From positions 1 to 64,000 of IMG/VR virus record IMGVR_UViG_3300037851_000476: a stretch of DNA of 64,000 bases. The stretch is one strand, 5' to 3'. Under the pieces are notes generated by a model. That model had not been told where the DNA came from. It made no database searches and saw only the letters and a list, made by a program, of their open reading frames with translations. Source of the DNA: a virus. Of the stretch, positions 14,261 to 29,595 are shown one piece after another. Each line of letters opens with the position of its first letter. Positions within the stretch are counted from its first letter, which is position 1. Made by a program: the position numbers and the translations under genes.

Positions 14261-14366
14261 TGTGACGGTTGCAACCGGCGAGCCCGAGGGTGGGGATATC
14301 TTCGCCGAGGCTGCGTACGGTGAGGATAAGGGGCCGGTGCCGACGATCATGACAGGGAAAGGATAG
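14091..14366 (+). CDS. single-pass membrane protein (91 aa)
   Basis: TM helix LILIAAASFTLAVISIGISAAAGYW. Its third-position G/C content is higher than that of the overlapping frame (hand count). Confidence 0.45.
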   Translation: MNTAIGWQDLILIAAASFTLAVISIGISAAAGYWAGRNSRELPFRSKNNPRRERPPDVTVATGEPEGGDIFAEAAYGEDKGPVPTIMTGKG

Positions 14367-14373
14367 GCAAACC

Positions 14374-14538
14374 ATGAGAGCCATCGTTGTTTGGGTCATT
14401 GGGTTTTTCTGCGGCTTCGGGCTGATGGCGTTTTTTCACGCCAAGCGGATAGAGCAGATCGAGCGTTGGCACCACGATGCGCAAAGCGAGCTGGCATCGC
14501 TTCGCGGCGTGATGGCGTGGAGGGATGATCTGAAATGA
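14374..14538 (+). CDS. 54-aa membrane peptide (below ORF-track cutoff)
   Basis: Hand translation: MRAIVVWVIGFFCGFGLMAFFHAKRIEQIERWHHDAQSELASLRGVMAWRDDLK. GGAAAGGA lies upstream. ATGA overlap with 14535. Confidence 0.45.
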   Translation: MRAIVVWVIGFFCGFGLMAFFHAKRIEQIERWHHDAQSELASLRGVMAWRDDLK

Positions 14539-15146
14539 GCCTGCATAAACTGATATGCGAGATCTGCCGCGAGCCGATCGCAACCTTTGATCCCACCGAG
14601 GTGGTGCCGCGCGCCGAAATGTCGGGGCTGGTCAACCTGCAGGCGTTTCGAAGCCTCTACCCCGAGCGGCAGGTGCCGCCGCCGTTTCCGGCAGCACTCG
14701 ATGATTGGAGGCTTGCCGCATGCCCGAGGTGCCGCTGCCGGCCGTTTTTCAACCACATGGAGAAGGGCGACGGCACGGTAATTATCGCTACCGGCGAAAC
14801 GGTTCCCGAAGGCGGCCAATGGTATCTTTCGGTTGAGGGGGATAGTGGCCTGATTGAAAAGGTGCTACTATCAGAGATCAGAGAACAAGCCCCCCCCGAG
14901 CAGCCGTCACAAATCCGCGTTGAAGCAAACAAGAACGTACCAGAAAACGAGCTTTGGTTTGTTAAAGATGGCGAGCCGAAAGCCATTCTGACAGGCATCG
15001 AAGCCGATTCCGAGCCGACCGGCAACTACACGAGCCGGCCGGTACTCTGCCCGCATTGCGGCAAGCAGTTCCGAAGCCAAGGCCGCCTTGAGAAGTACCA
15101 TACACCCTGTCCCAGCCTGCCCCCCCAGGAAGGATTTAAGATCTGA
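14535..15146 (+). CDS. Cys-rich (zinc-finger-like) protein
   Basis: CEIC...CPRCRC and CPHCGK...H..CP pairs. TGATG junction with the portal gene. Confidence 0.6.
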   Translation: MSLHKLICEICREPIATFDPTEVVPRAEMSGLVNLQAFRSLYPERQVPPPFPAALDDWRLAACPRCRCRPFFNHMEKGDGTVIIATGETVPEGGQWYLSVEGDSGLIEKVLLSEIREQAPPEQPSQIRVEANKNVPENELWFVKDGEPKAILTGIEADSEPTGNYTSRPVLCPHCGKQFRSQGRLEKYHTPCPSLPPQEGFKI

Positions 15147-17440
15147 TGGCTACCGATACCGCCGATCAGTACAGCGGCCCCGAGCTGCTGCCGCCCGAGG
15201 GGCATCCCCGCGTTGGCTACACCGTATTCGAGATCCTGGCCGAGGTGCTGCAGCACAAGCAGGACTTGGGGCTGCCGGCCAAGTGGATGCGCCACTACGA
15301 GCTGTCCAAAAACCGGCATTGGCGCTCAACATCGCGCAAAGCGCCGCTTGTTACCGCGAATCTGCTGCATGCCCACCGTGTCAGGACCGTCAACACGCTC
15401 ACCGACAACAACCCCACGTTTAACGTAATGCAGGTGGGCGAGGTGGAGCCCGAAAAAGAGGATGTGTTCGACACCCTGCTCAAGACCTGCGAGTTCTGGT
15501 GGACCGACGCCGAGCAGCAAAACGTATTGGAGCAATCGGTCCTCAACGGAGAGCTTTACGGCTGCACGTTCGAGAAGATGATCTTCAACCCGCGCCTTGA
15601 AGGGGGCCTGGGCGAGGTCGAAACCGTGGTGGTGGATCCGTTTTATATCGGCTGGTATCCGGTCAAGTGCATGGATATCCAGAAAGCGCATGCGGTTTTG
15701 CACTTCTACCCGATGAGTGTGCGCGAGGCCCGCTGGCGCTGGCCCGACAAGGCAAGCGAGATCATGTCCGATGACGAGGCGATCAAGGCGCTGGGCGACA
15801 CGCGCATGGAAATCAAGGCCAACAGCCTGGGCCAGCACGACCAGGGCTATTTCACCTCGATCGGAAACGCGATCAAGCAGGTGTTTTCAGCCTTTGGGGC
15901 CGGCGGCGGCAAGGGGGCGGCCAACATCAGCGACGAGGTGCTGATCGTTGAGTGCTGGATAAAGGACTACAGCCGCGCCAAGGGCAAAAGCGAGATCGAG
16001 GAGGACAAATACCCCGGCAACCTGCGCTGCGTGACGGTTTGCTGCGGGGGCAAGGTGGTCTTGGAAGACAAGCCGAACCCCTCCATCAACCCCGAGCTGC
16101 CGGCCGAGCAGGCGGCGCAAACCTACCTGTGGGACCGCTTTCCCTTCTCCAAGACCCAAAGCCACACCGACACCGGCAACCCATGGGGGATGAGCGACCT
16201 CGAACAGCTCGAAATGCTCAACATCGAGATCAACAAGACCATCAGCCAGCTTACCCTCGTAAAGGACCGTATCGCCCGTATCAAGCTCGTCAACCCGAAG
16301 GATAGCGGGGTCAGCAACGACGAGTTCACCAACGCCCCGGGCATCATCAACCCCTCCAACAGCCTCGCGGCCCAGGCGATCCGCTACCTCGACCCGCCCA
16401 CCATCAACGCCGATATGTTCAAGTTCCTCGATGTCTACCAGAGCCTTTTCTTCCAGGTGGCCGGCTCATTCGAGCTGGAACAGGCCGATGCGACCGGCAA
16501 GAACGTCATCGCCTACAAGGCGATCGCGGCCCTCTTGGAGCGGGCGGCGACCATGCTGCGCGGCAAGATCCGCAACTACTCCAAGATGATCCGCGAGCGC
16601 GGCCGGATGTATCTTTCCCATGCGATGAATTGGTACACCGAGGACCGCTTCATCAGCTACGAGCAGGACGGCGAGAGCATGGCCCAGGCGATCCGCGGCG
16701 ATCAAATGCTGATCCCGGCGAAGCTCAACGTGGTTTCGGGCTCGACCATGCCGGTTTCCAGGGTGCAGGAGCGCGAGGAGGCCCTTGCCCTGTTCGACAA
16801 GGGCGCAATCGACGCCGAGGAGCTGCTGAAAAAGATCGATTGGAAGAACTGGAAGGATGTCATTGCCCGAATCAAGTCCGGCCCGATAGGCGAGTTTTTG
16901 TCCAAGCTCGAAATGATGGGCTTCCCGCCCGCGATGATCCAAGGCCTGCAGGAGATCGGCACTATGGAGATGGATGACTTCGAAAAGGCGCTCGAAGACG
17001 GCGAGATCCCCATGCTGCCGCAACTGCTATCTGCACCCTCGCCGTTTGAAGGCGGCGCAAGCCCGCTTGAGCAGGGGGAAATGGAGCTTTCAGCCGCAAA
17101 GGCCGATGTCGAGCGCGCCAACGCCGAGCTGATCCGCGAAAAGACCAAGACCGAGCAGGTGATCCAGGCGACCAAGTTGGCCGGCATGAAGTTCGACAAG
17201 GAAAAGCTCGCCCAGGATCGGGCGCTTGCGATCGCCAAGATCAGGGCCGACAAGCACACCCAGGCCATGACCGACAAGCAGCTTGGCATCAAGGACCGCG
17301 AGGCCGGCATCAAGGCCAAATCCCTTGGGGTGAAGGAGGATAAGCCCAAGCCCGACAAGGCGGCCCAGGACCGCTACCAGAACCCGCAAGGCCCGTATGT
17401 GGAGAAGGGTATGGAATCAAACAACGAGGCAGGCAGGTAA
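15146..17440 (+). CDS. portal protein (putative)
   Basis: 764 aa. Lies between the terminase and scaffold/capsid genes. Charged coiled C-terminal tail. Assigned by size, position and general resemblance. Confidence 0.65.
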   Translation: MATDTADQYSGPELLPPEGHPRVGYTVFEILAEVLQHKQDLGLPAKWMRHYELSKNRHWRSTSRKAPLVTANLLHAHRVRTVNTLTDNNPTFNVMQVGEVEPEKEDVFDTLLKTCEFWWTDAEQQNVLEQSVLNGELYGCTFEKMIFNPRLEGGLGEVETVVVDPFYIGWYPVKCMDIQKAHAVLHFYPMSVREARWRWPDKASEIMSDDEAIKALGDTRMEIKANSLGQHDQGYFTSIGNAIKQVFSAFGAGGGKGAANISDEVLIVECWIKDYSRAKGKSEIEEDKYPGNLRCVTVCCGGKVVLEDKPNPSINPELPAEQAAQTYLWDRFPFSKTQSHTDTGNPWGMSDLEQLEMLNIEINKTISQLTLVKDRIARIKLVNPKDSGVSNDEFTNAPGIINPSNSLAAQAIRYLDPPTINADMFKFLDVYQSLFFQVAGSFELEQADATGKNVIAYKAIAALLERAATMLRGKIRNYSKMIRERGRMYLSHAMNWYTEDRFISYEQDGESMAQAIRGDQMLIPAKLNVVSGSTMPVSRVQEREEALALFDKGAIDAEELLKKIDWKNWKDVIARIKSGPIGEFLSKLEMMGFPPAMIQGLQEIGTMEMDDFEKALEDGEIPMLPQLLSAPSPFEGGASPLEQGEMELSAAKADVERANAELIREKTKTEQVIQATKLAGMKFDKEKLAQDRALAIAKIRADKHTQAMTDKQLGIKDREAGIKAKSLGVKEDKPKPDKAAQDRYQNPQGPYVEKGMESNNEAGR

Positions 17441-18310
17441 ATGAACACCCTAAAACGATCCCCAAAGTTCCTGCTGGTCGGCGCTGCCGGCTACGTTGCC
17501 CCCCGGCACATGGAGGCGATCAAGGCCGTGGGCGGCGAGCTGGTCGCAGCCGTTGACCCCTGCGATCAGGTGGGCATCCTCGACCGGTACTTTCCCAGGT
17601 GCGATTTTTACCGTACCGAGCTGCCCGGGGTGATCCCGCTCACCAATATCGACTATTGCGTGATCTGCACCCCGAACGACACCCATGCCCATATCGCCTG
17701 CTGGGCGCTCGAAAACGGGATGAACGTGATCCTTGAGAAGCCGGCCGCGCTGCGGGTCGAGGATCTTGACCGGATCAGGGCCTATGCCCAATCGAGATTC
17801 AAGACGGTCAACTGCATCCTGAACCTGCGCCTGCACCATGACGCAATCCTGCTGCGGGCCGTGTCCAGGCTCCTCAAGGACCGCGCCGTGGTCGATATCG
17901 AGTACTGCACTCCGCGGGGGCCATGGTACGCAAGAAGCTGGAAATCTCAATTTTACAGGTCCGGAGGGCTGCTGTTCAACATCGGGGTGCATCTGATCGA
18001 CTTGGCGCTTCTGGCGTTTGGGCCGCTTGACCCGTTCATGGCGCCCAAGATGTGCGCCCGCGCCGATCAGTCCTGGGCGGTCGGCGCGCTGCACCTCGAA
18101 AAGGCCGACGTATTCATCAAGCTCTCGATCGACCGCCGCCCGAAACGGCGCACGTTCACCGTCGGGGGCGCCGAGTTCGACTTCACCAACGGGTTCGAGG
18201 ATCTGCACATCGAGAGCTACCGGCGCATAATCCGCGGCCAAGGGTTTTCCCTCGAAGACGCCAAGCCCGCAATCGAGCTTTGCGAAAGGATCGGCGGTCA
18301 TGCCAGTTGA
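17441..18310 (+). CDS. wbpB: Gfo/Idh/MocA oxidoreductase, WbpB-like (UDP-GlcNAcA 3-oxidase type)
   Basis: VGAAGYVAPRHMEAIKAVG, PRGPWYARSWKS, NIGVHLIDLA and FTNGFEDLHIESYRRIIRGQGF align with my recollection of P. aeruginosa WbpB. The ATG directly follows the portal TAA. Confidence 0.75.
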   Translation: MNTLKRSPKFLLVGAAGYVAPRHMEAIKAVGGELVAAVDPCDQVGILDRYFPRCDFYRTELPGVIPLTNIDYCVICTPNDTHAHIACWALENGMNVILEKPAALRVEDLDRIRAYAQSRFKTVNCILNLRLHHDAILLRAVSRLLKDRAVVDIEYCTPRGPWYARSWKSQFYRSGGLLFNIGVHLIDLALLAFGPLDPFMAPKMCARADQSWAVGALHLEKADVFIKLSIDRRPKRRTFTVGGAEFDFTNGFEDLHIESYRRIIRGQGFSLEDAKPAIELCERIGGHAS

Positions 18311-18755
18311 GCAGTCCAAGATCGGCGAGGGAACGATCATCCACCAGCCCGAGCTTTGCAACATTTACTATTCCTCCATCGGCCGCGACTGCCGCATAGC
18401 GGCTTTCTGCGAGATAGGCTTCTGCCTGATCGGCGATCGGGTTTTTATCCAGAGCTTTGCCTTCATTCCCCCGAAAGTGGTCATCGACAATGATGTTTTC
18501 ATCGGCCCGCGAGTCACCTTCTGCAACGACAAGTACCCGCCGAGCAAAGGCTACTGGCAAGAGAACAAAGTAACTCATGTGCGTAGTAGGGCCTCGATCG
18601 GGGCAGGGGCCATCATACTGCCGGAGGTCACGATCGGAGAAGGCGCCAGGATCGCGGCCGGCGCGGTCATAACCAAGGACGTTCCCCCAGGAGTGCTTTC
18701 TTATGGAGCTTACGGCAAGGGTTCAAGCGGTTCTGAGACATGGCCAGTTCGTTAA
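18300..18755 (+). CDS. wbpD: left-handed beta-helix (hexapeptide) N-acetyltransferase, WbpD-like
   Basis: Hexapeptide repeats. VFIGPRVTFCNDKYPPS and ASIGAGAIILPEVTIGEGARIAAGAVITKDVPP are present. Confidence 0.7.
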   Translation: MPVEQSKIGEGTIIHQPELCNIYYSSIGRDCRIAAFCEIGFCLIGDRVFIQSFAFIPPKVVIDNDVFIGPRVTFCNDKYPPSKGYWQENKVTHVRSRASIGAGAIILPEVTIGEGARIAAGAVITKDVPPGVLSYGAYGKGSSGSETWPVR

Positions 18756-19767
18756 CGGCCCCGAGGTCGGCGAGTTCGAGCGGGCCATGGCCCGCTACAT
18801 CGGCGTTGGAAATGCGGTTGCGCTCAACTCCGGAACCGATGCGCTCATATTGGCGCTGCGTGTTTTGGGGGTGGGCGAGGGGGATGTCGTTGCGCTTCCG
18901 GCCTTCACCTTTTCGGCGACCGCCTCCGCGGCGGCCATGTGCGGGGCGATTATCCACCTTGCCGATATCCGCGAGTCCGACTTCGGGATCGACGTAAACA
19001 CGCTATCCGATCCGGACGTTTTGAAAGCCATGATTGCAGTCGATATGTTCGGGATCCCCTGCGATTGGCCGTCGGTCATCGATATTTGCGCAACGCACAG
19101 GATCCATCTGGTCGAGGACGCCGCCCAGGCGATCGGCGCCCGATTCGCGGGGGCGAAGTGCGGCAGCATCGGGATGATCGGCTGCGCCTCGTTTTACCCC
19201 AGCAAGCCGCTGCCTTGCGCGGGCGATGGCGGCATGCTGTTCACCAACTACGACAGCATCGCCCAGCGGGCGCGCATGCTCGCAAACCACGGCCGCGTGT
19301 CCGAGCGCCGGTACGAGGCCGAGCGCGTCGGCACAAACAGCCGGCTCGACACCATCCAGGCCGCCGTCCTGCTCGACCGGCTAAAGGTCTTTGAAAGCCG
19401 CGAGATCCCCTGGCGCATTGCCCAGGCCCAGGAATACGGCAACCGGCTGCCCGCCTGCAGGCACCACGAGCCCAGGCCCGGGCGCGAGCCGGTCTGGTCG
19501 TGGTATCCGGTGCTGTACGAATCAAGGAAAGAGCGCGACGATGTTTTGCAGAACTACGGCGGCTACGTCGGGGCGCGGGTGATCTACCCGACCCCGATCC
19601 ATCTGATGCCGGCCTTTGAATACCTCGGCTACCGACGGGGGGATTTTCCGGTCGCCGAGTCGGTCTGCGAGCGGATCTTAGCCTTTCCGATTGTCCACCA
19701 TTGGGAGGTCAACCGATGCCTGTCTACGATCGGCAATGCCGAGAGTGCGGCCGTGTGTTTGAGGTGA
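18703..19767 (+). CDS. wbpE: DegT/DnrJ/EryC1-type PLP aminotransferase, WbpE-like
   Basis: VLRHGQFVNGPEV, NSGTDALILAL, VEDAAQA and SFYPSKPLPCAGDGGMLF (PLP-Lys region) are present. An in-frame stop at 18670-18672 limits the N-terminus. Confidence 0.8.
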   Translation: MELTARVQAVLRHGQFVNGPEVGEFERAMARYIGVGNAVALNSGTDALILALRVLGVGEGDVVALPAFTFSATASAAAMCGAIIHLADIRESDFGIDVNTLSDPDVLKAMIAVDMFGIPCDWPSVIDICATHRIHLVEDAAQAIGARFAGAKCGSIGMIGCASFYPSKPLPCAGDGGMLFTNYDSIAQRARMLANHGRVSERRYEAERVGTNSRLDTIQAAVLLDRLKVFESREIPWRIAQAQEYGNRLPACRHHEPRPGREPVWSWYPVLYESRKERDDVLQNYGGYVGARVIYPTPIHLMPAFEYLGYRRGDFPVAESVCERILAFPIVHHWEVNRCLSTIGNAESAAVCLR

Positions 19768-20111
19768 TCGAGCGCATTGCCGATGAAAAACGTCCATGCC
19801 CGAGCTGCGGCGGCAGAGCGCCAAGGATCATCAGCGCCGGCAAGTGTTTCACGGGAAACAATGACGCCGCCTGGGTCAGGACCGTGCGCGATGTGGTCGC
19901 CAAGGGCGGCGATGCCGACATCAACGACCGCAAGTTTCTCTCGTCGGGCATGACCAAGCAGGATTTAAGGGCTTGGATGAAGGCCAAGGGGATCCGGCAC
20001 CTCGAAAGAGGCGAGCCGCTTAAACCGAAACCCCCCGATATGTCCAATGCGGCCGACGGCATTATGAAAATGCGCCAGCAGCGCAGGCGTATCGACATCA
20101 GAACGAGATAG
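19716..20111 (+). CDS. FmdB-type zinc-ribbon protein
   Basis: MPVYDRQCRECGRVFEV...CPSCGG. GGGAGG lies 7 nt upstream of the ATG at 19716. Confidence 0.65.
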   Translation: MPVYDRQCRECGRVFEVIERIADEKRPCPSCGGRAPRIISAGKCFTGNNDAAWVRTVRDVVAKGGDADINDRKFLSSGMTKQDLRAWMKAKGIRHLERGEPLKPKPPDMSNAADGIMKMRQQRRRIDIRTR

Positions 20112-20124
20112 GAGGGCTTGTACC

Positions 20125-20322
20125 ATGCCAGAACCAGGGCTTGCAGAACAACTCACCGGATGGTCGAAGAAAGTACAGCGTTTCAGCGATGCCTTGCCCA
20201 GCCTCGGAATGCGCACCCCCGAGGAGGAAGCGGCGCGAAAGCGGCGCCTTGAGCAGTACAAGGCCGAGGACGCTGCCGCCGCCAACCCGAAGCCGGCCCC
20301 GAAAGGTAAAAACAAACCATGA
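20125..20322 (+). CDS. hypothetical protein (65 aa)
   Basis: ORF track. ATGA overlap with the amidase gene. Confidence 0.5.
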   Translation: MPEPGLAEQLTGWSKKVQRFSDALPSLGMRTPEEEAARKRRLEQYKAEDAAAANPKPAPKGKNKP

Positions 20323-20756
20323 CGCCGACAGAGATCATCTTGCACCATTCGGCTACCAAAGACAGCGGGACCGTTAGCTGGAACGCCATTCGCAGGTATC
20401 ATGTCAACGAGTGCGTGTGGGGTGATATCGGCTATCACTTCGGCATCGAGCTTACGCCCGACAAGGGCTATGCCCCGGGCAGCTACGAGATACTGATGGG
20501 CCGCATGCCGGATGTCCCGGGCGCCCATACCAAGGACCACAACCAGACAAGCCTCGGCGTGTGCTTTGTCGGCGCCTTTGACTCCGAGCCGGTGCCGGCG
20601 ATGCAATGGGAAAAGGGCCTCGCCCTGGTCCGGTGGCTCTGCCGGAATTGGGGCATACCGGTCGCAAGGGTGTTCGGACACCGGGAGTTTGCAAACAAGA
20701 CATGCCCCGGGCTCTTATTTGATTTGGATAGGTTCAGATGCGAGCTGAAACTCTAA
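20319..20756 (+). CDS. N-acetylmuramoyl-L-alanine amidase (Amidase_2/PGRP, T7-lysozyme-like)
   Basis: ILHHSAT, GYHFGI and FGHREF..KTCPG are the zinc-ligand pattern. Confidence 0.85.
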   Translation: MTPTEIILHHSATKDSGTVSWNAIRRYHVNECVWGDIGYHFGIELTPDKGYAPGSYEILMGRMPDVPGAHTKDHNQTSLGVCFVGAFDSEPVPAMQWEKGLALVRWLCRNWGIPVARVFGHREFANKTCPGLLFDLDRFRCELKL

Positions 20757-20769
20757 AAGGAGAGGATCA

Positions 20770-20943
20770 ATGGCAAATTACGCGATCACCGACTACACCA
20801 CCAGCCGGCAGAACTCGGTTGCAGCCTGCACGGCTCTGATCGAGGCCTACCTCGAAACCGTTGACGATACCAAGACGGTCATCGCCTGCGGGGTCATCGC
20901 CATCGGCGGGGAATACGAGGGATACGTCATCCACAAAGCCTAA
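20770..20943 (+). CDS. 57-aa hypothetical protein (below ORF-track cutoff)
   Basis: Hand translation: MANYAITDYTTSRQNSVAACTALIEAYLETVDDTKTVIACGVIAIGGEYEGYVIHKA. AAGGAGAGG lies upstream. It replaces the spurious minus-strand ORF 20767..21003. Confidence 0.5.
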   Translation: MANYAITDYTTSRQNSVAACTALIEAYLETVDDTKTVIACGVIAIGGEYEGYVIHKA

Positions 20944-20963
20944 GAAAGGAGAGCAAGCCCCCA

Positions 20964-21191
20964 ATGGAACCAAACGAAAAAGAGCTGATCGAGGAGATGT
21001 CAACGAGGTTCACCTACCACCCCCCGAAGCAAGGGCAGCCGATAAAGTACGAGGATCTGCGCGAAGCCGGGAGGATGCTGGCATTAAAAATCTGCAACCT
21101 TTGTCCTGAAAGCAGGGAGCGTTCCGTTGCGCTTACCAAGCTGGATGAGGTTGTAATGTGGGCGAACGCCGCGATTGCCAGGAGGGAGTGA
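20964..21191 (+). CDS. small phage protein resembling the Acb2/Tad1-hairpin family (possible cyclic-nucleotide sponge)
   Basis: FTYHPP...YEDLREAGRMLALKICNLCPESRERSVALTKLDEVVMWANAAIARRE matches a very common phage small-protein motif. I recall that motif being annotated as Acb2/Tad1. Not verified. Confidence 0.5.
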   Translation: MEPNEKELIEEMSTRFTYHPPKQGQPIKYEDLREAGRMLALKICNLCPESRERSVALTKLDEVVMWANAAIARRE

Positions 21192-21418
21192 TGGACAAAT
21201 ACCGAAAGGCGGTTGTCGAGCTGTGCGCGGCGATCGAGCTTGCCAACGCCCGCGCAAATACCGGCCAGAAGGTGATGATCGACCTAAACGATTGGAGAGC
21301 GGCCTTGAAGCTGGTCGGGGAGATCAAGGCCAGCATGAACCACGGCGAGCAGTACCGCTACGAGCAGCACCTCGAACGCGAGCGCGGGTTCAGACAGGCA
21401 AAGGAGGCCCCCGCATGA
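21191..21418 (+). CDS. hypothetical protein (75 aa)
   Basis: TGATG junction with the previous ORF and an ATGA junction with the next. Confidence 0.5.
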   Translation: MDKYRKAVVELCAAIELANARANTGQKVMIDLNDWRAALKLVGEIKASMNHGEQYRYEQHLERERGFRQAKEAPA

Positions 21419-22599
21419 ACATCCTTTTCGTGGCCTATCACACCTGCGCCCGCGCCGCCAAGGAGGCCCGGGCGCTTGGAAAGGCGGGCCATCAGGTCAT
21501 CATCCTGCAGCATGTGGCCGCCAGCGAGGAGATCCTGTATTCAACCGAGCTTTCATCTTTCTACCACGGTGAGCAGGCCCTCCGCGAACGGATCGCCTAT
21601 TTTTCCGATTGGGCCGAGGTGATCCATGTCCACAACGAGCCCAACTGGATCGTCATCGCCGCCGCCGCCGAGCGCGACCGCTCATGCCCCGGCGTTCCGG
21701 TTGTCTTCGACGTTCACGACCTCGAATCCATGCGCGAATCGGGGGATACCGACAAGGACGAAACCGCGGCGATCCATGCGGCCGATGCCTTCATCTTCCC
21801 CAGCAGGGCCTATATGCACGGTGTCCGCACAAGCCGCAACGTAGATTCCGTGCCGTGCAGGGTCATCTATTCCATGTGTGGGCGAGATGAGATCGTTGAC
21901 CAGCCGCTTCCGAGGGTAAACGGCATCGTCTACGAGGGCGCGGCGGTCGCGCCGCTTCTGAACTTCAACAACAAGTCTCCCGGGTGGAAGGGCTATCGTG
22001 ACTACTCAAGCATGACGCGCGCCTTGACCGGCGCGTTCGTGCCGTTTCATCTGTACGGGATCCGCAAGGAGTTCCAGCAGCCCTACATCAACGCCGGGGC
22101 GATCGTCCACGACATGATCCGCTACCCCGACCTCTTGAAGCAGCTATCGCGCTACGATTGGGGGCTTTGCGGACACCTCGAAAGCCACCCCCAATGGAAC
22201 AAGGCCATGCCGAACAAGCTGTTCGAGTATCTGGCGGCCGGGATCCCGGTCATTTCGATCAACGCCGACGAGGTTTCCGATTTTGTTTCAAAGCACGGCC
22301 TGGGAGTGGTCGCCAAGGACTTGAACGAGCTGAACAAGATCGCCCGGGACCGTAAGATGCGCTCCTCCCTGGCCGAAAAGGTCGAGGACGAGCGCGAGCG
22401 GTTCACGATGGGGGGCCAAGTGAATGAGATCGAGGCGCTTTATGCACAAGCCTCCGCTTATCGCAAAATCCGACTTGATGCTGGGATGTGGATGCACGAC
22501 GGCGAGCAAAGGCCGGGAGCTGATCGAGCGTGGGTATGTAGCGCAAGGCCCGAAGACTTTGCCAAGGATAACGGCGGCGGCGATCAACTGCTCTCATAG
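21415..22599 (+). CDS. GT-B fold glycosyltransferase (GT4-like)
   Basis: AAGGAGG precedes the ATG at 21415. N-terminal MNILFVAYH. C-terminal NKLFEYLAAGIPVISINADEVSDFV is an E-x7-E type motif. Confidence 0.75.
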   Translation: MNILFVAYHTCARAAKEARALGKAGHQVIILQHVAASEEILYSTELSSFYHGEQALRERIAYFSDWAEVIHVHNEPNWIVIAAAAERDRSCPGVPVVFDVHDLESMRESGDTDKDETAAIHAADAFIFPSRAYMHGVRTSRNVDSVPCRVIYSMCGRDEIVDQPLPRVNGIVYEGAAVAPLLNFNNKSPGWKGYRDYSSMTRALTGAFVPFHLYGIRKEFQQPYINAGAIVHDMIRYPDLLKQLSRYDWGLCGHLESHPQWNKAMPNKLFEYLAAGIPVISINADEVSDFVSKHGLGVVAKDLNELNKIARDRKMRSSLAEKVEDERERFTMGGQVNEIEALYAQASAYRKIRLDAGMWMHDGEQRPGADRAWVCSARPEDFAKDNGGGDQLLS

Positions 22600-23161
22600 C
22601 TTCGAGCGGATACTTGCGACCATTAAAGGCAGGTACAAGGCAAACTTCATCCGTGAGGCCCAAAAAGCGAAAAAGGCCACGGTCTGCAGCATGTTTTCGC
22701 CGGCAGCCCTGGCAGATGAGATCGAAACCATTAACAAAAGCATGGCCGTTAGAAGCGGCGGCCCGATGCGCCCTGGCTATCACCGATCGGCCGATGAACT
22801 CAGGCAGGCCTACCGAGCAGAGCCCGATACCAGATGCCGATACCATTGCTCGCTGTGGTGGGGATGCTTCGAGATCGACCATGACGCGGACAGGCATAGA
22901 GCAAGCGGACTCCTCGCCTACCTGCAGCTCCGACGATACGGAAATCTTTGTTGTTATTCGACGCTGCTCGGTCACGGCCGCCACCTCGCCCTCGGGGTCA
23001 TGCCGTTCTTACACCTGCAGGTGATGGAGGCGGTCTGCTCGTGGCTGTGGCCGGATGAGATCGATTGGCTCATGTACGCCGGCTGGCATGACGGCGGCCG
23101 AGGGTTGCAGCTTTGGAAGAAAAAGGCCGGCTTTGAGCCGGTGATGTTCGTCCTTCCGTGA
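22424..23161 (+). CDS. hypothetical protein, possibly an acyltransferase-like fold
   Basis: ORF track. C-terminal GLQLWKKKAGFEP is reminiscent of GNAT/FemAB-type ends. The start is uncertain (22424, 22442, 22478 or 22691). Confidence 0.45.
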   Translation: MRSRRFMHKPPLIAKSDLMLGCGCTTASKGRELIERGYVAQGPKTLPRITAAAINCSHSFERILATIKGRYKANFIREAQKAKKATVCSMFSPAALADEIETINKSMAVRSGGPMRPGYHRSADELRQAYRAEPDTRCRYHCSLWWGCFEIDHDADRHRASGLLAYLQLRRYGNLCCYSTLLGHGRHLALGVMPFLHLQVMEAVCSWLWPDEIDWLMYAGWHDGGRGLQLWKKKAGFEPVMFVLP

Positions 23162-23279
23162 AAATTCACCGGGATCTGACACCTGATTTTTTGAATAAAT
23201 TAAGGGGTCAGATCGGTTGAGCGTGAATTTTCACCGAAGCAAACAATAACCTCCCCCAAAAAAGGCCAAAAAGGGGAGG
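23158..23279 (+). promoter_or_regulatory. compound inverted repeats in the only sizeable gap of the accessory cassette
   Basis: GTGAAAATTCAC (23158-23169) pairs with GTGAATTTTCAC (23223-23234). GATCTGAC (23173-23180) pairs with GTCAGATC (23207-23214). CCTCCCC (23250-23256) pairs with GGGGAGG (23273-23279). Confidence 0.4.
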
Positions 23280-23307
23280 GTTAATCCGTATTGACAGGAG
23301 AAACGCT

Positions 23308-24024
23308 ATGGCACGGCATCCAATTTTGGACATTTTCGACCGGATCACGACCCGCGCCCCCTTCATCCGGCCGATTGCGTTAGAGCTTTTCTGCGGCGCC
23401 GGCAAGGGGCAGGCAATAGAATACGCCTCGATGTGCGAATACTTCGAGGGCTGGGACATGCGCGAGGAAAAGATCGCCGAGCTGCGGCGCAACATCCCCG
23501 GCGCCAGGGGCAAGGTGTGCGATGTCTACACGGCGCTTTTGCAGCCGCGGGAGATCACCGAGACAGACAAGTTCAACGTGATCCTGGTCGATAACTCGGC
23601 CCTGATCGCACAGAACGGGCATTTCGAGCATTTCGACGTATTCCCCGGGATTTACAACCTGATGAGCCCGGCATGCTGTTTCGTGGTCTTCTCTGTTATT
23701 CCGGACCCCTACGGCTACGCCGAGCCGAGGAAAGATGCGATCCGCAAGGCGTTCGCCCGCCCCGAGGAGTTCATGGCCGATTGGGACGCCGCCCGGGATA
23801 AGTTTTACCATCTGCCGCCGCTTGACCCGGACAACATGCCAAAGCCGAGGCCGGTGTCATCCATACGCTTGAGAGACATGGAAGACCTCTACCGCGACCG
23901 GTTCGAATCCGACCGGTGGAGCGTACCCTATACCTTTTCCTGCATGCGCAGCAGGGCGGCCGGCTATGTGCTGGTCGAGGCCAAGCAAGCGCCCGCCGAC
24001 TTGAAAGGAGCCACTTCACGATGA
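23308..24024 (+). CDS. class I SAM-dependent methyltransferase (substrate unknown)
   Basis: Motif I-like LELFCGAGKG and a later acidic strand VILVDN. No DPPY or PCQ motif seen. Confidence 0.5.
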   Translation: MARHPILDIFDRITTRAPFIRPIALELFCGAGKGQAIEYASMCEYFEGWDMREEKIAELRRNIPGARGKVCDVYTALLQPREITETDKFNVILVDNSALIAQNGHFEHFDVFPGIYNLMSPACCFVVFSVIPDPYGYAEPRKDAIRKAFARPEEFMADWDAARDKFYHLPPLDPDNMPKPRPVSSIRLRDMEDLYRDRFESDRWSVPYTFSCMRSRAAGYVLVEAKQAPADLKGATSR

Positions 24025-24281
24025 GCCAGCAGCAGCCCCCAGCCATTCCGATAAACGCAATCGACAAGCCCGTTTTCGTCATCAGGATCAACGTGATGGC
24101 GAGCGGAAAGCTCGAAGTCAACGGCTTCCCGGCCGAGTACAATCAGGCGATGAACGCTATGGGGCTCGCCCAGCGCGTAGTCATGGACTTCTTTATGTCC
24201 AAAGCCGTCAAGGGGGAGTTCAGAGAGCAGAAGCTATTTATGCCTAATCAGGAACAAATCTCCAAAATTACAAGGAATTGA
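24021..24281 (+). CDS. hypothetical protein (86 aa)
   Basis: AAAGGAG RBS. ATGA overlap with the methyltransferase stop. Confidence 0.5.
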   Translation: MSQQQPPAIPINAIDKPVFVIRINVMASGKLEVNGFPAEYNQAMNAMGLAQRVVMDFFMSKAVKGEFREQKLFMPNQEQISKITRN

Positions 24282-24288
24282 GGCCGCG

Positions 24289-25047
24289 ATGACCGATTTC
24301 GCCAGCAAGCGCAACGGAACCGGCATAAGCTATTTCGGCCTTCTTGGGATGGTGGATGGCAGCCTCATCGAGCCAAGCCCTGAAAACCTCGAAAGAAAAC
24401 CGACACCCGACGGCCGGCGCTACTGGATCAGGCACGATGTCGATGACCGTATCGATGCCGCCTGGGACATGGCCAGAGCCGAGAGCGACCGCGGAATCAA
24501 GGCGGTCTATTTTTTTCTCAACACGGCGGCCTATTTCCGCTGGGACGCTTTCTTGCCGATGGCAAAGGATTTTGTACGGGCCGGCCACGCGATAGGCCTG
24601 CACAACAACAGCGTCACGGCCGCTTTCATGGCCGGGGAGCCGAAGCTCGCCGAGGAGATTTTGCTGCGGGATCTGGCTTACCTGCGCCAAGCGGGCGATG
24701 TCTGGATCACGGCAAGCCATGGGGATGCCTGGAACCGGCACCACAACGTCCTCAACTATGAAATGTTCACCGAATGCCGGCGCCCGGGGCGCGGAAGCCC
24801 CTTGGAGCGTAAGCCGCTTGCCCGCTACGGTCTGAAACACGAGGCCTACTTCACCCCCTATGACGTTTATCTGAGCGATTCCGGAGGTAAATGGGCTGGG
24901 TCGAAGCTCGGCGATGCCGGCTCGTGGTCGAGCCCTGGCGCCGCGATCGACCACTTCAACCAATGCGATCATGCAATTATGCAGATCCTCGTCCACCCCG
25001 AATGGTGGGAACCAACCAACACCCAAGCGAAAGGAGTAGAACCATGA
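24289..25047 (+). CDS. polysaccharide deacetylase / carbohydrate-esterase-like protein
   Basis: WIRHDVDD...GIKAVYFFL...GLHNN...SHGD resembles the NodB-type Asp-Asp and His motifs. The match is weak. Confidence 0.4.
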   Translation: MTDFASKRNGTGISYFGLLGMVDGSLIEPSPENLERKPTPDGRRYWIRHDVDDRIDAAWDMARAESDRGIKAVYFFLNTAAYFRWDAFLPMAKDFVRAGHAIGLHNNSVTAAFMAGEPKLAEEILLRDLAYLRQAGDVWITASHGDAWNRHHNVLNYEMFTECRRPGRGSPLERKPLARYGLKHEAYFTPYDVYLSDSGGKWAGSKLGDAGSWSSPGAAIDHFNQCDHAIMQILVHPEWWEPTNTQAKGVEP

Positions 25048-25466
25048 GGAAAGTATCGGCGTTACTGGCAATTTGTATCGTTTTCACGCTTCTGCCGGCA
25101 ATCTGCGCGGCGCAGACATGGCACACGGCGAATCAGGTAACGGTCGCCTGGGATCCGGTGGCGAAACTGCAGCCGACCGACACGATCAGCTATCAGGTCT
25201 ACACCAAGTTCGGGATGCCGACGGCCACCCCGCAGGCGGCGGGGGCGCCGGTCACGGCTACCCAGCAGACGATCAGCTTCTCAGCCGAGGGCCGCTATTT
25301 CGTCTGCGTTGAGTCCCTGCGCCTGCCGCAGGGGGAAACCGAGGTGCAGCGCAGCGCCCGTATGGCCTGCAGCGATGTGGCGACCGATGTGGCTGGCGGC
25401 GCGACCTTCGGAGTCAAGTATTTCATCCCGCCAGCCGACGCCACCGGGATCCGACTGCAGCCGTAG
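25044..25466 (+). CDS. secreted FN3/Ig-like protein
   Basis: Signal peptide MRKVSALLAICIVFTLLPAICAAQ. VTVAWDPV...YQVY beta-sandwich-like pattern. ATGA overlap with the previous gene. Confidence 0.55.
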   Translation: MRKVSALLAICIVFTLLPAICAAQTWHTANQVTVAWDPVAKLQPTDTISYQVYTKFGMPTATPQAAGAPVTATQQTISFSAEGRYFVCVESLRLPQGETEVQRSARMACSDVATDVAGGATFGVKYFIPPADATGIRLQP

Positions 25467-25476
25467 GGGCGATGAA

Positions 25477-25665
25477 GTGCTAAACACTACCCATAGCGTA
25501 CCGTCCGAAGCTACTGCACAAAGGCTGCTTGACATAGTGCAAAAAATAGTGGAAGATTGTAGAAAAAGCCGGTACACCGGATGCATTTCACTCGTAGTCA
25601 CCTTTAAAGATGGTGGGCTTAGGTCATGTGAGCAGCACAATAGCCACTTAGTTTGTCTTGATTAG
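25477..25665 (+). CDS. possible small protein (62 aa, GTG start), YezD/DUF2292-like
   Basis: GCISLVVTFKDGGLRSCEQ resembles the DUF2292 core. Weak RBS. Low-GC stretch. Confidence 0.3.
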   Translation: MLNTTHSVPSEATAQRLLDIVQKIVEDCRKSRYTGCISLVVTFKDGGLRSCEQHNSHLVCLD

Positions 25666-25712
25666 GTCGGACCCTTAAAGCGGCCCGGGGCCAATCCCCG
25701 GAACCCGATAGA

Positions 25713-25754
25713 AGCCCGATTCAGGCGAATCGCCTGGGTCGGGCTTTTTTATTT
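25713..25754 (+). terminator. rho-independent terminator closing the accessory cassette
   Basis: AGCCCGA-TT-CAGGCG-AAT-CGCCTG-GG-TCGGGCT followed by TTTTTTATTT. Confidence 0.8.
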
Positions 25755-25781
25755 CAATCCCTCGCAAAGGAGATCGATCGA

Positions 25782-26690
25782 ATGGATGGCGAAGCAGGGG
25801 CGCTAAATACGGATGCAGGGTCATCGCCTCAACCTGCGCAAATTGGTGAGCTTGTCAGCACGGTCGAGTTTCATTCCCCGAAGCCGGCCGCAGCCGACAA
25901 AACGCCCGAGGGGGCGCTAAAGACCGAAGCCGCCAGCAAAGACAGCCAGCCAGCAGCAGGCAAGGAAACCGAAGGCGGGAAGACCGGCAAAGGCGAAAAG
26001 GCGCCCGGGGAAGATGACCGGTTCGACAAACATCCCCGCTTTCAGGAGTTAAACCAGCGGGTAAGGGAATCAGACCGCATTATCCGCGAGCTGAAACAGC
26101 AGGTTTCGGATCTCACCGCAAAAGCGGGCTCACCGCCGAAGGGCGAAAAGGACGATCAGGGCGATCTGCCATTCAAGGATATCTCCAAGATGAAGCCCGA
26201 GGAGCTTCTGGATTGGCAGAGCGAGAAGCCCCACGAGTTCTACCAAAACGTCCTTGCCCAGGCAAAACACGAGCTTTCCAAGGAGTTCACGCAAAACTTC
26301 GAGCAGCGCAGCCGCGAGGATGCCGTTGTGGCGACCTATGAGAGCTTCGCCAAAGAGCATCCCGACTTTGACCATATGTGGGACGAGGGCAAGCTGCAGG
26401 AGTTCATGCAATCCAACCCGGGCCACAACGCGATCTCAGCCTATTGGGCGATCACCGCCGAGGCCAAGGTCGCCGAGGCCGCCGAGAAAGCCGCCAAGGA
26501 AGCCGAAGCCAAGTTCATCAAGAACCAGCGAGCGAAACGAGCGGCAGATGTCCTCCCGCAAGGACCGTCCGCGCCGGGATCCTTCGGAACCGGCGACGAG
26601 GCGCTGAAAGATTCCAAAAAATTCGGCGGGACCACGGCGGTACTTGCTCAACGGTTAGCTGATCGAAGACGGTCACAGGCCGGCATGTAA
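25782..26690 (+). CDS. scaffolding protein (putative)
   Basis: Lys/Glu/Ala-rich helical protein directly upstream of the capsid gene. Confidence 0.55.
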   Translation: MDGEAGALNTDAGSSPQPAQIGELVSTVEFHSPKPAAADKTPEGALKTEAASKDSQPAAGKETEGGKTGKGEKAPGEDDRFDKHPRFQELNQRVRESDRIIRELKQQVSDLTAKAGSPPKGEKDDQGDLPFKDISKMKPEELLDWQSEKPHEFYQNVLAQAKHELSKEFTQNFEQRSREDAVVATYESFAKEHPDFDHMWDEGKLQEFMQSNPGHNAISAYWAITAEAKVAEAAEKAAKEAEAKFIKNQRAKRAADVLPQGPSAPGSFGTGDEALKDSKKFGGTTAVLAQRLADRRRSQAGM

Positions 26691-26739
26691 GGGCTGTCCG
26701 GTAGGTTCTGCTTCATTTCCCTAAGAGGAGGATCTACCC

Positions 26740-27714
26740 ATGGCATTGACCTTCGAAGAACTCGAAGCGATCACCAACGATTATTTCATGCTCGACGGCG
26801 GCAAAGCCGTCGATATCTATTTCTACGACTCCTTCCTTCTCAACTACCTGATGAAACAGCAGAAAGGTATTTGGGAGCGGCCGAACGGCGGCGAGAAAAT
26901 CCGTATCCCGCTGGAATACGACGGCCAGGAAGCCGAGTTCTACAGCCGGGGCGACACGGTTTCAAGCGATGACCGCGAAAGCATCAACGCGGCCTATTTC
27001 GAGTGGAAACACGCCTACGGTAACGCCACGATCTACCGGATTGACCAGTTGAAAAACTCCGGCGAGTACGCCGAGGTTCAGCTCGTCAGCCAGCGGGTCG
27101 GCGGCGCGCAGAAGTCCCTCACCAAGCTGCTCTCGGGATCCATCTACGACGATGCGGCCGGGGCCGGCAACCGCCTGACCGGTTTGAAGGCCCTCTGCAG
27201 CGAGTCCTCTGCGGTCGCCTACGGCGGCATTGCCGAGGATGACCTCGTTGCGGCCGACGGGACGAAGCCGTGGGAGGGCAAACGCACCACCTCCGCAGTC
27301 ACCCTCACCCTTCCCAACGTCAGAACCGCCCGCACCGCGGCCAAGATCCGCGACGGCGCGGCCGGCAAGCCGGATCTGATGGTCACGACCGAAACCAACT
27401 TCAATACCCTGGTGGACATCCTGCAGGTGCAGCAGCGGTTCACCAACGGCAAGGCGACCGTCGAGGCCGGCTTCACCGGGATCCTGCTCGAAGGCATGGA
27501 GGTTTTTCCCGATGACTACTGCCCGACCTCAACCGGCCTCTGGATCAACAGCAAGCATATCGGCTTTGCCGTCCATCAGCAGGGCTACATGATGCGGACC
27601 AAGTGGGAGAAAATCGCCGACTCCCCCGAGGATAAAACCATGAAGATCTACTTCGACGGCAACATGGTCTGCAACAACCGCAAGGGGTTCAACTGCTACA
27701 CATCCCTCGCTTAA
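26740..27714 (+). CDS. major capsid protein
   Basis: 324 aa with a strong RBS (AGAGGAGG). Position follows the scaffold gene. N-terminal LTFEELEAITNDYF and overall resemblance to HK97-fold coat proteins. Followed by a hairpin. Confidence 0.7.
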   Translation: MALTFEELEAITNDYFMLDGGKAVDIYFYDSFLLNYLMKQQKGIWERPNGGEKIRIPLEYDGQEAEFYSRGDTVSSDDRESINAAYFEWKHAYGNATIYRIDQLKNSGEYAEVQLVSQRVGGAQKSLTKLLSGSIYDDAAGAGNRLTGLKALCSESSAVAYGGIAEDDLVAADGTKPWEGKRTTSAVTLTLPNVRTARTAAKIRDGAAGKPDLMVTTETNFNTLVDILQVQQRFTNGKATVEAGFTGILLEGMEVFPDDYCPTSTGLWINSKHIGFAVHQQGYMMRTKWEKIADSPEDKTMKIYFDGNMVCNNRKGFNCYTSLA

Positions 27715-28875: not shown

Positions 28876-29595
28876 ATGGCAAACGAACTCGACACAGAGC
28901 TTTTCAGCCTTGAGCTGTCTGCCGAGGTTCTGGCGGTCGAGGAGACATCCCAAACACTCGCCGACGATGTTCTCGATAAGGTGCAGGACGGCTCCTACTC
29001 GTGGGAAGATGCTGTCAAGCTGTTCAATGCCTGCCTGTATGAACTCGCCGGCGAGTTTTTAATCCCCGACCTCGAACAATGGACCGACCTCTATACCGAC
29101 CCGGGCGTGAACCATGCGCCGCTTCCGGCCGACTACATGCGCAACCTGCGCTATGTGCATTCGGTCACGCACAACCGGCCGCGGATCAGGATACAGGGCT
29201 CGGTCGTGCAGCTATTCCGGTGGTACTCGAACCTGGACCGCCAGGGGCCGGTGCGTCAGGTGGCCGTCAAAGGCCGCCAGCTCTATTACCAGCTCGTCCC
29301 GTCAACGGCCGAGCAGTTGCGGATCAACTATTTTTCCTACCCCGAGCGGCTGCGCCTGCGCGATGACAAGCCTACCTGTCTGCCGGCGCACCTCATCGAG
29401 CCGCTGCTGGTGGCCTACGCCTGCCGGGAGCTTTTCAACGAGATCGAGGACGCCCTGGAAGGCGCAAAGCCCAATACGGCCCATTGGGGGACCACGTACG
29501 ACAAGGCCAAGGCCCAGCTCGCAGCCTTTCTCGGACCCGAGAAGCGCGAGCCCGAGGAGTTCCGCGACGAGATCCATTGGGATGCTCTGGTCTGA
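28876..29595 (+). CDS. virion-module protein (possible head-tail adaptor)
   Basis: ORF track. The functional call rests on position only. Confidence 0.5.
   Translation: MANELDTELFSLELSAEVLAVEETSQTLADDVLDKVQDGSYSWEDAVKLFNACLYELAGEFLIPDLEQWTDLYTDPGVNHAPLPADYMRNLRYVHSVTHNRPRIRIQGSVVQLFRWYSNLDRQGPVRQVAVKGRQLYYQLVPSTAEQLRINYFSYPERLRLRDDKPTCLPAHLIEPLLVAYACRELFNEIEDALEGAKPNTAHWGTTYDKAKAQLAAFLGPEKREPEEFRDEIHWDALV

Follow-up and report, generated by a model that had tools for sequence, protein, structure and literature searches.

Why should a phage carry a set of sugar-building enzymes between the genes for its portal and its scaffold, and what would these enzymes glycosylate? The question is raised by a 64,000-nt stretch of metagenomic viral DNA (IMG/VR record IMGVR_UViG_3300037851_000476, positions 1 to 64,000), called the window below; coordinates refer to it unless the number of a related locus (L) is given. 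The late-gene array of this phage runs on the + strand from 12097 to ~51000, and within it 17 densely packed + strand genes occupy the gap from the portal (ending at 17440) to the scaffold (starting at 25782). We interpret the block as a glycosylation cassette that has been conserved in the phage lineage and is lodged in a slot for accessory genes where the terminase-portal transcription unit reaches its 3′ end. Judging from their sequences, its seven soluble enzymes should synthesize an amino sugar with two N-acetyl groups, modify it, and transfer it to an acceptor. The established part of this picture comprises the gene identities at the level of family or fold, conservation, purifying selection, gene packing, and the lack of WbpA and WbpI. 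The seven cassette genes are the following.

17441-18310, + strand: predicted WbpB/WlbA-type NAD-dependent sugar 3-dehydrogenase, 289 aa (gene 1)
18300-18755, + strand: predicted left-handed beta-helix (LbH) N-acetyltransferase of the 3-amino-sugar class, Pfam Hexapep PF00132 at 6.5e-22 (gene 2)
18703-19767, + strand: predicted DegT-family pyridoxal phosphate (PLP) sugar C3-aminotransferase, Pfam DegT PF01041 at 3e-85 (gene 3)
21415-22599, + strand: GT-B glycosyltransferase (GT), catalytic part at about residues 1-346 (gene 4)
22442-23161, + strand: 239-aa tailoring-domain protein, possibly GNAT-like, missed by the initial annotation (gene 5)
23308-24024, + strand: methyltransferase-like protein, weakly assigned (gene 6)
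24289-25047, + strand: divergent CE4/NodB-fold deacetylase-like protein without a signal peptide (gene 7)

A predicted nucleotide-sugar trio directly behind the portal

As the initial annotation had noted, the portal stop codon (TAA, 17438-17440) is followed without any gap by the ATG of the first cassette gene at 17441. The product of this open reading frame (ORF) has a Gfo/Idh/MocA fold with an N-terminal Rossmann domain (PF01408 at 5e-14, PF22725, PF02894), and its end-to-end matches in the PDB are 3o9z from Thermus thermophilus (1.7e-47, 165 bits) and 3oa2, the WbpB of P. aeruginosa (5.6e-45, 157 bits). The remaining Gfo/Idh/MocA structures score E 2e-12 or worse and at most 50 bits, with 28 bits for 7bvj, which we take to be GnnA, and a model of the archaeal UDP-GlcNAc 3-dehydrogenase reaches only 24.5 bits. 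Residues E99, K100, P101, S174, G175, G176, N180, and H184 are invariant in 28 WbpB-like sequences and align with 3o9z and 3oa2; the block TxRGxWYxxSWK...SGGxxxNIGxH is common to WbpB/WlbA, and the EKP and NIGVH motifs are also kept. The 289-aa product is 100% identical to a protein of a 64,166-bp JGI metagenome contig, practically all of which is contained in the window. These features, together with the JGI annotation as a UDP-N-acetyl-2-amino-2-deoxyglucuronate dehydrogenase, identify ORF 17441 by sequence as a true WbpB/WlbA-type dehydrogenase. Since it lies far nearer to WbpB/WlbA than to UDP-GlcNAc 3-dehydrogenases, its most likely substrate by homology is UDP-GlcNAcA.

For the acetyltransferase encoded by ORF 18300, the highest-scoring structures are 7s3u (4.6e-29, 104.7 bits) and the acetyltransferase domain of 4mzu (2.9e-24, 89.2 bits), followed by WlbB (3mqg; 9.5e-13, 51.7 bits) and QdtC (4.4e-12). 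We take 7s3u to be the dTDP-3-amino-sugar N-acetyltransferase of Helicobacter pullorum and 4mzu to be the FdtD enzyme of Shewanella, both acting on neutral dTDP-3-amino-sugars. All four enzymes place an acetyl group on the 3-amino nitrogen of a nucleotide sugar, and ORF 18300 therefore fits this class; it shares the broad LbH fold with WbpD/WlbB and is, by these scores, not their orthologue.

The aminotransferase encoded by ORF 18703 is similarly close to several solved enzymes, namely, 4qgr (215 bits, 1.7e-62), 8e77 (209 bits), WbpE (205 bits, 1.9e-59), 7b0d (203 bits), DesV (193 bits, 7e-56), QdtB (179 bits, 1e-51), and also 8e75, several of which are C3 aminotransferases. Its SFYPSKP motif aligns with the PLP lysine region of the solved enzymes. 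The protein starts about 15 residues later than WbpE, at an ATG (18703) preceded by AGGAG, and the in-frame TAA at 18670-18672, which the initial annotation had seen as blocking an N-terminal extension, is real. The sister phages described below have the identical short start; since they begin at the equivalent point, the short N terminus is a trait of the clade and not a defect. A hidden N terminus in another frame was rejected, as the alternative frames do not encode the missing part.

Taken together, the three sequences suggest a set for C3 oxidation, C3 transamination, and N-acetylation, downstream of which, still among the head genes, a GT and tailoring enzymes are encoded, as had been proposed from the DNA alone. 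The labels given to the three at that time fared differently when checked against the WbpB/D/E families: WbpB-like stands, with 3o9z and 3oa2 as the best matches; WbpD-like does not, given that 7s3u and 4mzu outscore WlbB; and for WbpE-like, WbpE is one of several equally good matches among sugar aminotransferases. The reported absence of a WbpA-type enzyme also holds: no domain of a UDP-sugar 6-dehydrogenase (WbpA) or of a WbpI 2-epimerase was found in the window ORFs of at least 400 aa or among the genes tabulated for the sister loci.

A glycosyltransferase followed by putative tailoring enzymes

The GT passes the Pfam gathering scores for Glyco_transf_4 (34.1 bits, 3.4e-8; cut-off 28.5) and Glyco_trans_1_2 (33.1 bits, 6.4e-8; cut-off 25), bearing out its earlier designation as GT4-like, and is 57-73% identical in the sister phages. 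Its best PDB matches are Gtf3 enzymes (glucosyltransferases; 4w6q at 1e-3, and 9hu9), over the C-terminal half only. Gtf3 extends protein-linked glycans in the cytoplasm. The last ~50 residues of the GT overlap the next gene, and in this tail the ratio of nonsynonymous to synonymous substitution rates (dN/dS) is 0.5-1.1, compared with 0.15-0.32 in the body of the protein.

This next gene, at 22442, lies out of frame in a 158-nt overlap with the GT tail (158-230 nt in the equivalents of the four phages) and was skipped or shortened by automatic gene callers. Its Met start and a GAGG ribosome-binding site are conserved in all four phages, and its product is 54-66% identical in the sisters with a dN/dS of 0.23-0.30. 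Selection on the overlap thus acts mainly on the downstream frame, and the GT tail is poorly constrained. A programmed frameshift that would fuse the GT to the 22442 gene was rejected in view of the conserved start and ribosome-binding site and of a dN/dS of up to 1.1 in the tail. The 22442 domain has 353 representative homologues, among which cellular proteins carry it as a fusion with a sulfotransferase, an AsnB-type amidotransferase, a methyltransferase, or an LbH domain. Weak GNAT matches occur in 5 of 42 family members, and a profile search with the family against the PDB gave no meaningful match and no solved relative.

The protein encoded at 23308 has only 18 homologues among 5.8 billion protein clusters, none with a Pfam domain, and itself has no Pfam, NCBIfam, PHROG, or PDB-sequence match, nor a meaningful one in a profile search against the PDB. 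An ExFCGxG motif (E26-x-F-C-G-x-G32) is invariant in its homologues. Its AlphaFold2 model is of low confidence (pLDDT 55), yet SAM (S-adenosylmethionine) methyltransferases make up nearly all of its top 50 Foldseek matches in the PDB (E from 2e-4, TM score 0.3-0.43). The earlier call of a SAM methyltransferase is therefore plausible at the level of motif and modeled fold and has no counterpart in the family databases. Together with the 22442-type proteins, it represents two enzyme families without a characterized member.

The last enzyme, at 24289, is likewise without a Pfam match and has only 31 homologues; its AlphaFold2 model is confident (pLDDT 93.3), and the first 25 Foldseek matches of the model are all CE4/NodB-type deacetylases or esterases (best 2vyo, 6e-5, TM score 0.51/0.61). 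A profile search against the PDB weakly retrieved CE4 peptidoglycan deacetylases (E 0.025). Within the family R48, H49, D50 (HDVD), H105, H144, and H236 are invariant, and the HxxxH motif lacks its second His (GLHNNSV). The modeled fold thus suggests a deacetylase-like protein, and it is at this level that the earlier description as deacetylase-like can be upheld. Distant cellular CE4-like homologues (P0160, P0164, P0165, P0167) bear N-terminal hydrophobic leaders, which the phage proteins lack. By hydrophobicity analysis, none of the seven cassette enzymes has a signal peptide or a transmembrane segment.

What is inferred comprises a substrate, an expression timing, an order of tailoring steps, and, most conjecturally of all, an acceptor. 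The WbpB-type dehydrogenase would oxidize C3 of a host UDP-HexNAc, most likely UDP-GlcNAcA; the DegT enzyme would then transaminate the resulting 3-keto sugar, and the LbH enzyme would N-acetylate the new amine to yield UDP-GlcNAc3NAc(A). The soluble GT-B enzyme would move this sugar onto a cytoplasmic acceptor, and the CE4-like, GNAT-like, and methyltransferase-like proteins would tailor it, for example, by de-N-acetylation, re-acylation, and methylation.

Conservation of the cassette in a hypervariable slot

The cassette is embedded in a phage backbone with the following landmarks.

1068-2228: integrase
12097-13782, + strand: terminase large subunit
15146-17440, + strand: portal, upstream boundary of the cargo slot (phrog_156, E 7e-20; 44-89% identity among relatives)
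25782-26690, + strand: scaffold, downstream boundary of the slot
26740-27714, + strand: major capsid protein (MCP; 50-89% identity in 36 related loci)
28876-29595, + strand: SU10-type adaptor

The PHROG matches of scaffold and MCP are phrog_8865 and phrog_9953, and a head-closure protein is also encoded in the array. With its integrase and a RecT encoded in the window, the phage is temperate; it is podovirus-like, and its host probably belongs to the Syntrophia/Desulfobacterota. Relatives of its MCP number 32 in IMG/VR, to which matches in Syntrophus, Syntrophorhabdus, and other metagenome-assembled genomes are added, one of them on a 188-kb contig that is probably a prophage. Among GenBank phages we found no close MCP relative, identity to Mx8, Mx9, and Brucella phages being below 30%. 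In one relative (L018 9053-10000, and probably also L005 8977-10000) the MCP gene is split by ~950 nt, and the L018 insert gives two matches to group I introns in Rfam (E 7e-10 and 2e-7), both falling just short of the gathering score.

The closest homologues of ORF 17441 among the 5.8 billion protein clusters, at 56-62% identity, come from sister phages (L041, L037, L039/L040), where they directly follow the portal. In these phages, the WbpB-like gene is followed by LbH (one or two copies), DegT, Zn-ribbon, GT, 22442-, 23308-, and 24289-type genes, so that the seven-enzyme set is present at the same location in three sister phages, with 50-81% identity. Divergence of the cassette tracks that of the backbone, L041 being nearest for every gene, and the cassette genes evolve under a dN/dS of 0.12-0.36, compared with 0.09-0.23 for portal, scaffold, and MCP. 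GC content is uniform across the block (0.58-0.63). Cellular WbpB-like homologues are at most 47% identical, which argues that the cassette is old in the phage lineage. No WbpB-like homologue was matched among 50,697 GenBank phage records.

The distance from portal to scaffold is 0.8-7.4 kb in the relatives, and the 8.3 kb of the window is the largest. This gap is a hypervariable cargo slot, whose contents beyond a Zn-ribbon gene are cargo. Other glycan gene sets found in it are WbpB-like plus LbH in L012, L020, and L026 and GT plus CE4-like plus LbH in L030. Cargo of a different nature includes a LamG/ConA-like lectin (L011 7603-8385), two CBM5/12 proteins, one with a collagen-like repeat (L022 1134-4541), and a papain-like protease (L012 2553-3608), for which particle-surface or host-interaction functions are possible.

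Outside this phage family, a WbpB-like gene directly neighbors an LbH gene in ~50 of 80 unrelated viral contigs of IMG/VR, in some cases beside terminase or head-closure genes. The unrelated WbpB-like copies are 34-43% identical to ours and come without the full seven-gene set. Two examples are L053 4106-11962 and L062 2585-8852, where WbpB-like and LbH genes (plus a GT) lie beside a head-closure gene or the terminase large subunit. Glycan genes in packaging and head modules may thus be a wider pattern, and phage-borne versions of the trio chemistry are already present, and apparently unstudied, in public data. As phage cargo, a glycan cassette is unusual and not unprecedented.

Probable placement of the cassette within the terminase-portal transcription unit

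From the portal to 25665, all gene junctions are overlaps or gaps of at most 20 nt, except for a single gap of 146 nt. Given this tight packing, we infer that the cassette is co-transcribed with terminase and portal. The unit ends just before the scaffold.

25710-25757, + strand: intrinsic terminator with an 18-pair stem (10 GC pairs) and a T-run, ~25-38 nt upstream of the scaffold

An equivalent hairpin and T-run precede the scaffold in 18 of 22 relatives checked, are strong in most, and show compensatory stem changes. They are also present in low-cargo relatives such as L005 and in relatives without glycan genes. The terminator therefore marks where the terminase-portal unit ends throughout the family and has no specific tie to the cassette, so that its interpretation as the end of a dedicated glycan operon was rejected. 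The initial annotation, which had described one glycan operon closed by a strong terminator and expressed with the structural genes, was right about the terminator and, to judge from the packing, about co-transcription with the portal; the block itself is a mixed slot that also holds endolysin, Acb2/Tad1-like, and Zn-ribbon genes, and the unit stops short of scaffold and capsid. In the family, the terminator leaves only ~25-70 nt before the scaffold start, and scaffold and capsid may be transcribed by read-through, processing, or an overlapping promoter.

What is glycosylated?

The acceptor that we favor is a virion protein glycosylated during head assembly, to which we assign a probability of about 0.4. 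The seven enzymes have no export signals, which makes a cytoplasmic acceptor likely; their genes are packed behind the portal; and the nearest solved relatives of the GT modify proteins. The recurrence of glycan genes in the slot in other combinations, and beside head or terminase genes in L062 and L053, counts in the same direction. Several observations weigh against this proposal. The acceptor is a prediction, and neither the MCP nor the following 242-aa protein has a Ser/Thr-rich extension or a clade-specific acceptor patch. The GT resembles Gtf3 only weakly (E 1e-3, confined to the C-terminal half), and its top NCBIfam matches are O-antigen-type sugar transferases or galactofuranosyltransferases. 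The acetyltransferase is not of the WbpD type, the methyltransferase and GNAT assignments are weak, and without WbpA the supply of UDP-GlcNAcA would depend on the host. A sigma-70 promoter scan, for a host whose own promoters could not be assessed, gave nothing above shuffled expectation. Location in the slot implies by itself no head-related function, since unrelated cargo shares it (the endolysin and Acb2/Tad1-like genes here; lectin, CBM, and protease in relatives), and because the phage is temperate, lysogenic conversion is possible. In its full form, that is, a tailed phage of Gram-negative anaerobes that makes a tailored 2,3-diacetamido (uronic) sugar from a host UDP-HexNAc by a self-contained route and glycosylates its own capsid with it in the cytoplasm, the proposal is put forward tentatively.

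The cassette might instead serve to remodel the host envelope, the GT adding the sugar to a lipid-linked or cell-surface glycan (O-antigen, lipopolysaccharide [LPS] core, capsule, or S-layer), either in lysogens, with superinfection exclusion or a serotype change as the outcome, or late in infection, so that progeny would not re-adsorb to debris. We regard this as the main rival and a serious one, if somewhat less likely than virion glycosylation. A temperate phage with integrase and RecT, a slot that resembles a moron site with host-interaction cargo, and the NCBIfam matches of the GT would all suit it, and O-antigen/LPS synthesis is the only setting in which the Wbp/Wlb pathway is known (PMC10622841; PMC4031482). 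The hairpin in the 146-nt gap could even carry independent regulatory signals, but this gap is absent from the sisters, and the trio abuts the portal stop with no space for a promoter before it. All seven enzymes are soluble, they are accompanied by no membrane enzyme, flippase, polymerase, or ligase, and the phage CE4-like protein has lost the leader of its cellular relatives. Moreover, the cassette does not adjoin int/att as most known seroconversion modules do; the integrase gene (1068-2228) is ~15 kb away, in agreement with the initial annotation.

A different question is whether the chemistry itself could deviate from that outlined above. Were UDP-GlcNAc the substrate of the dehydrogenase, in the manner of the archaeal and lipid-A GlcN3N routes, no host WbpA would be required, and the product would be UDP-GlcNAc3NAc or a further-tailored neutral sugar, which is compatible with either a virion or an envelope acceptor. 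The lack of a WbpA in the window and sister loci and the grouping of the acetyltransferase with 7s3u and 4mzu rather than WlbB favor such a route, as does the precedent of the Methanococcus pathway, which aminates UDP-GlcNAc first and oxidizes C6 last. We nevertheless consider it less likely, as ORF 17441 scores 165 bits to WbpB/WlbA, compared with 24.5 for the archaeal UDP-GlcNAc 3-dehydrogenase model and 28 for 7bvj, and has the TxRGxWYxxSWK...SGGxxxNIGxH block in common with WbpB/WlbA. An acceptor that is neither protein nor envelope, for example, phage DNA or a small molecule modified as a counter-defense, is improbable. The Acb2/Tad1-like gene of the slot and a DarB-like giant protein encoded in the genome would be in keeping with it, and PMC12619734 cites phage GTs that hypermodify DNA; on the other side, the large ORFs include no hydroxymethylase, thymidylate-synthase-like, nucleotide kinase, or DNA polymerase gene, the cassette lies outside any replication module, and the phage appears to depend on host replication. 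Finally, nothing beyond the metagenomic origin of the window speaks for bacterial DNA mis-assembled into a phage contig or for a decaying passenger, and we attach next to no weight to either. The gene order is repeated in four independent assemblies from different samples, and since the sister phages share it, an assembly artefact is excluded; one sister protein occurs in 34 collection blocks, and flat GC, purifying selection, and the gapless junction with the portal likewise speak for resident phage genes.

Other genes and elements of the slot

Besides the cassette, the slot holds the following features. Those at 19716-20111, 20319-20756, and 20964-21191, as well as the 22442 gene and four small ORFs, were unmentioned in the initial annotation.

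19716-20111, + strand: FmdB-type Zn-ribbon protein, outside the glycan set (Pfam Zn_ribbon_8 1.6e-11, TIGR02605)
20319-20756, + strand: N-acetylmuramoyl-L-alanine amidase (endolysin), cargo unrelated to the cassette (Amidase_2 3e-17; phrog_1493/822 2e-23)
20964-21191, + strand: Acb2/Tad1 hairpin-domain protein, 75 aa (Pfam PF24729, E 3.6e-20)
23153-23239, + strand: compound inverted repeat (I1, I2) forming a long hairpin (RNA fold -55.4 kcal/mol, z -3.95)
25044-25466, + strand: secreted beta-rich protein (N-terminal hydrophobic segment, KD19 2.58)
25477-25665, + strand: small gene with a probable GTG start

The Zn-ribbon proteins form the largest cluster of slot proteins (27 members) and are encoded between portal and scaffold in nearly all relatives with slot sequence, making theirs the only slot gene that is core to the phage family. 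For the amidase, no homologue was found in L037, L039, or L041. The product of 20964-21191 is, by its domain match, a candidate anti-CBASS/anti-Thoeris sponge, with a homologue in the L037 slot at 14402-14620. The protein encoded at 25044-25466 has the only signal peptide in the block; this part of its earlier description as a signal-peptide FN3-like protein is supported by hydrophobicity, and the FN3 part is not, as no Pfam match at E<=1 and no PHROG match was found. Its homologues are found both in slots that contain glycan genes and in slots that do not (L003, L004, L030, L037). The small gene at 25477-25665 directly precedes the terminator in several relatives (cluster c2, six loci), and tblastn matches cover residues 51-118 of the longer ORF 25309-25665. 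A 57-aa ORF at 20770-20943 is found in the slot here and in the sisters; cassette-less relatives have its homologue downstream of the capsid gene, for example, at L004 11235-11405 between MCP and the next head gene.

The hairpin at 23153-23239 includes two GTGAAWWTTCAC palindromes and has no U-run. It falls in the 146-nt gap (23162-23307), which is found in this phage only, the sisters having 17-22 nt at the junction, and which could represent either an inserted element or a site of regulation. An Rfam scan of 14000-27000 found nothing. Elsewhere in the window, a 54-aa ORF with an N-terminal hydrophobic helix (14374-14538), upstream of a 203-aa gene and the portal, may encode a holin-like small membrane protein, and a single 3878-aa ORF (51685-63321) matches DarB-like antirestriction proteins, DNA methyltransferases, and helicases (phrog_10089, 1409 bits).

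Implications and comparison with known systems

If a virion protein is indeed the acceptor, mycobacteriophages would be far from the only phages with particles shielded by glycans, and phages could carry a whole amino-sugar pathway for the glycosylation of their particles, which bears on phage-host recognition, environmental stability, and immune recognition of therapeutic phages. With either acceptor, the cassette is a compact, co-inherited seven-gene set with two uncharacterized tailoring families, one of which (22442-type) is widespread in bacteria as a fusion with sulfotransferases and amidotransferases, and the portal-scaffold gap of this phage family is a cargo hot spot for glycan, lectin, lysis, and anti-defense genes.

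The closest biochemical parallel is offered by the Wbp/Wlb systems (WbpA/B/E/D/I of P. aeruginosa O5, WlbA-D of B. pertussis, and those of T. thermophilus), with which the cassette shares a WbpB/WlbA-type dehydrogenase, a C3 aminotransferase, and an LbH N-acetyltransferase, as well as the gene order dehydrogenase-acetyltransferase-aminotransferase known from wbpB-wbpD-wbpE. Its aminotransferase is as near to WbpE as to any solved enzyme. The published pathway to UDP-ManNAc3NAcA requires five enzymes, WbpA, B, E, D, and I (PMC10622841). Unlike these systems, the cassette has neither WbpA nor WbpI, so that it would depend on UDP-GlcNAcA from the host and its product would keep the gluco configuration; its acetyltransferase is nearer to 7s3u and 4mzu than to WlbB; and it is phage-encoded, behind a portal.

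Glycan-modifying genes in a temperate phage are reminiscent of seroconversion modules (gtrABC, Oac, and the cluster of phage D3). The latter consist of membrane enzymes acting on finished O-antigen, usually lie beside int/att, and are expressed in lysogens; the enzymes of the cassette, in contrast, are soluble, without transmembrane segments, and encoded ~15 kb from int, packed behind the portal. The glycan/LPS auxiliary islands of environmental phages (e.g., cyanophages) and the pairs found in IMG/VR resemble the cassette in their adjacent WbpB-like and LbH genes, at 34-43% identity, and differ in lacking the full seven-gene set. A further likeness is to giant viruses (Mimivirus L136 aminotransferase with its N-acetyltransferase partner; the capsid glycans of chloroviruses), which encode DegT enzymes, N-acetyltransferases, GTs, and methylation and decorate their own particles. 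L136 (7mfo) is a very distant PDB match of ORF 18703 (5e-5). These, however, are viruses of eukaryotes with different sugars (viosamine and others), no WbpB-type dehydrogenase, and an unrelated genome context.

In mycobacteriophages, virion glycosylation by phage-encoded GTs is documented (Freeman et al. 2023, as cited in PMC12619734). The phage described here resembles this type (Che8, Corndog, Myrna) in having a GT gene in the phage genome and a proposed virion acceptor, the GT gene lying within the structural, late array, between portal and scaffold, with packed junctions. Mycobacteriophage GT genes, too, lie in the structural gene region. The glycans there are carried by C-terminal extensions of capsid and tail-tube subunits, and the hosts are actinobacteria; such acceptor extensions are absent here from the MCP and the next head protein, and glycosylation is demonstrated there and proposed here. 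To our knowledge, mycobacteriophages with virion glycosylation encode GTs but no nucleotide-sugar trio or tailoring enzymes. Should the capsid of our phage prove to be the acceptor, it would thus represent, as far as we know, the first virion-glycosylation system outside actinobacteriophages and the first tailed phage that brings its own nucleotide-sugar pathway.

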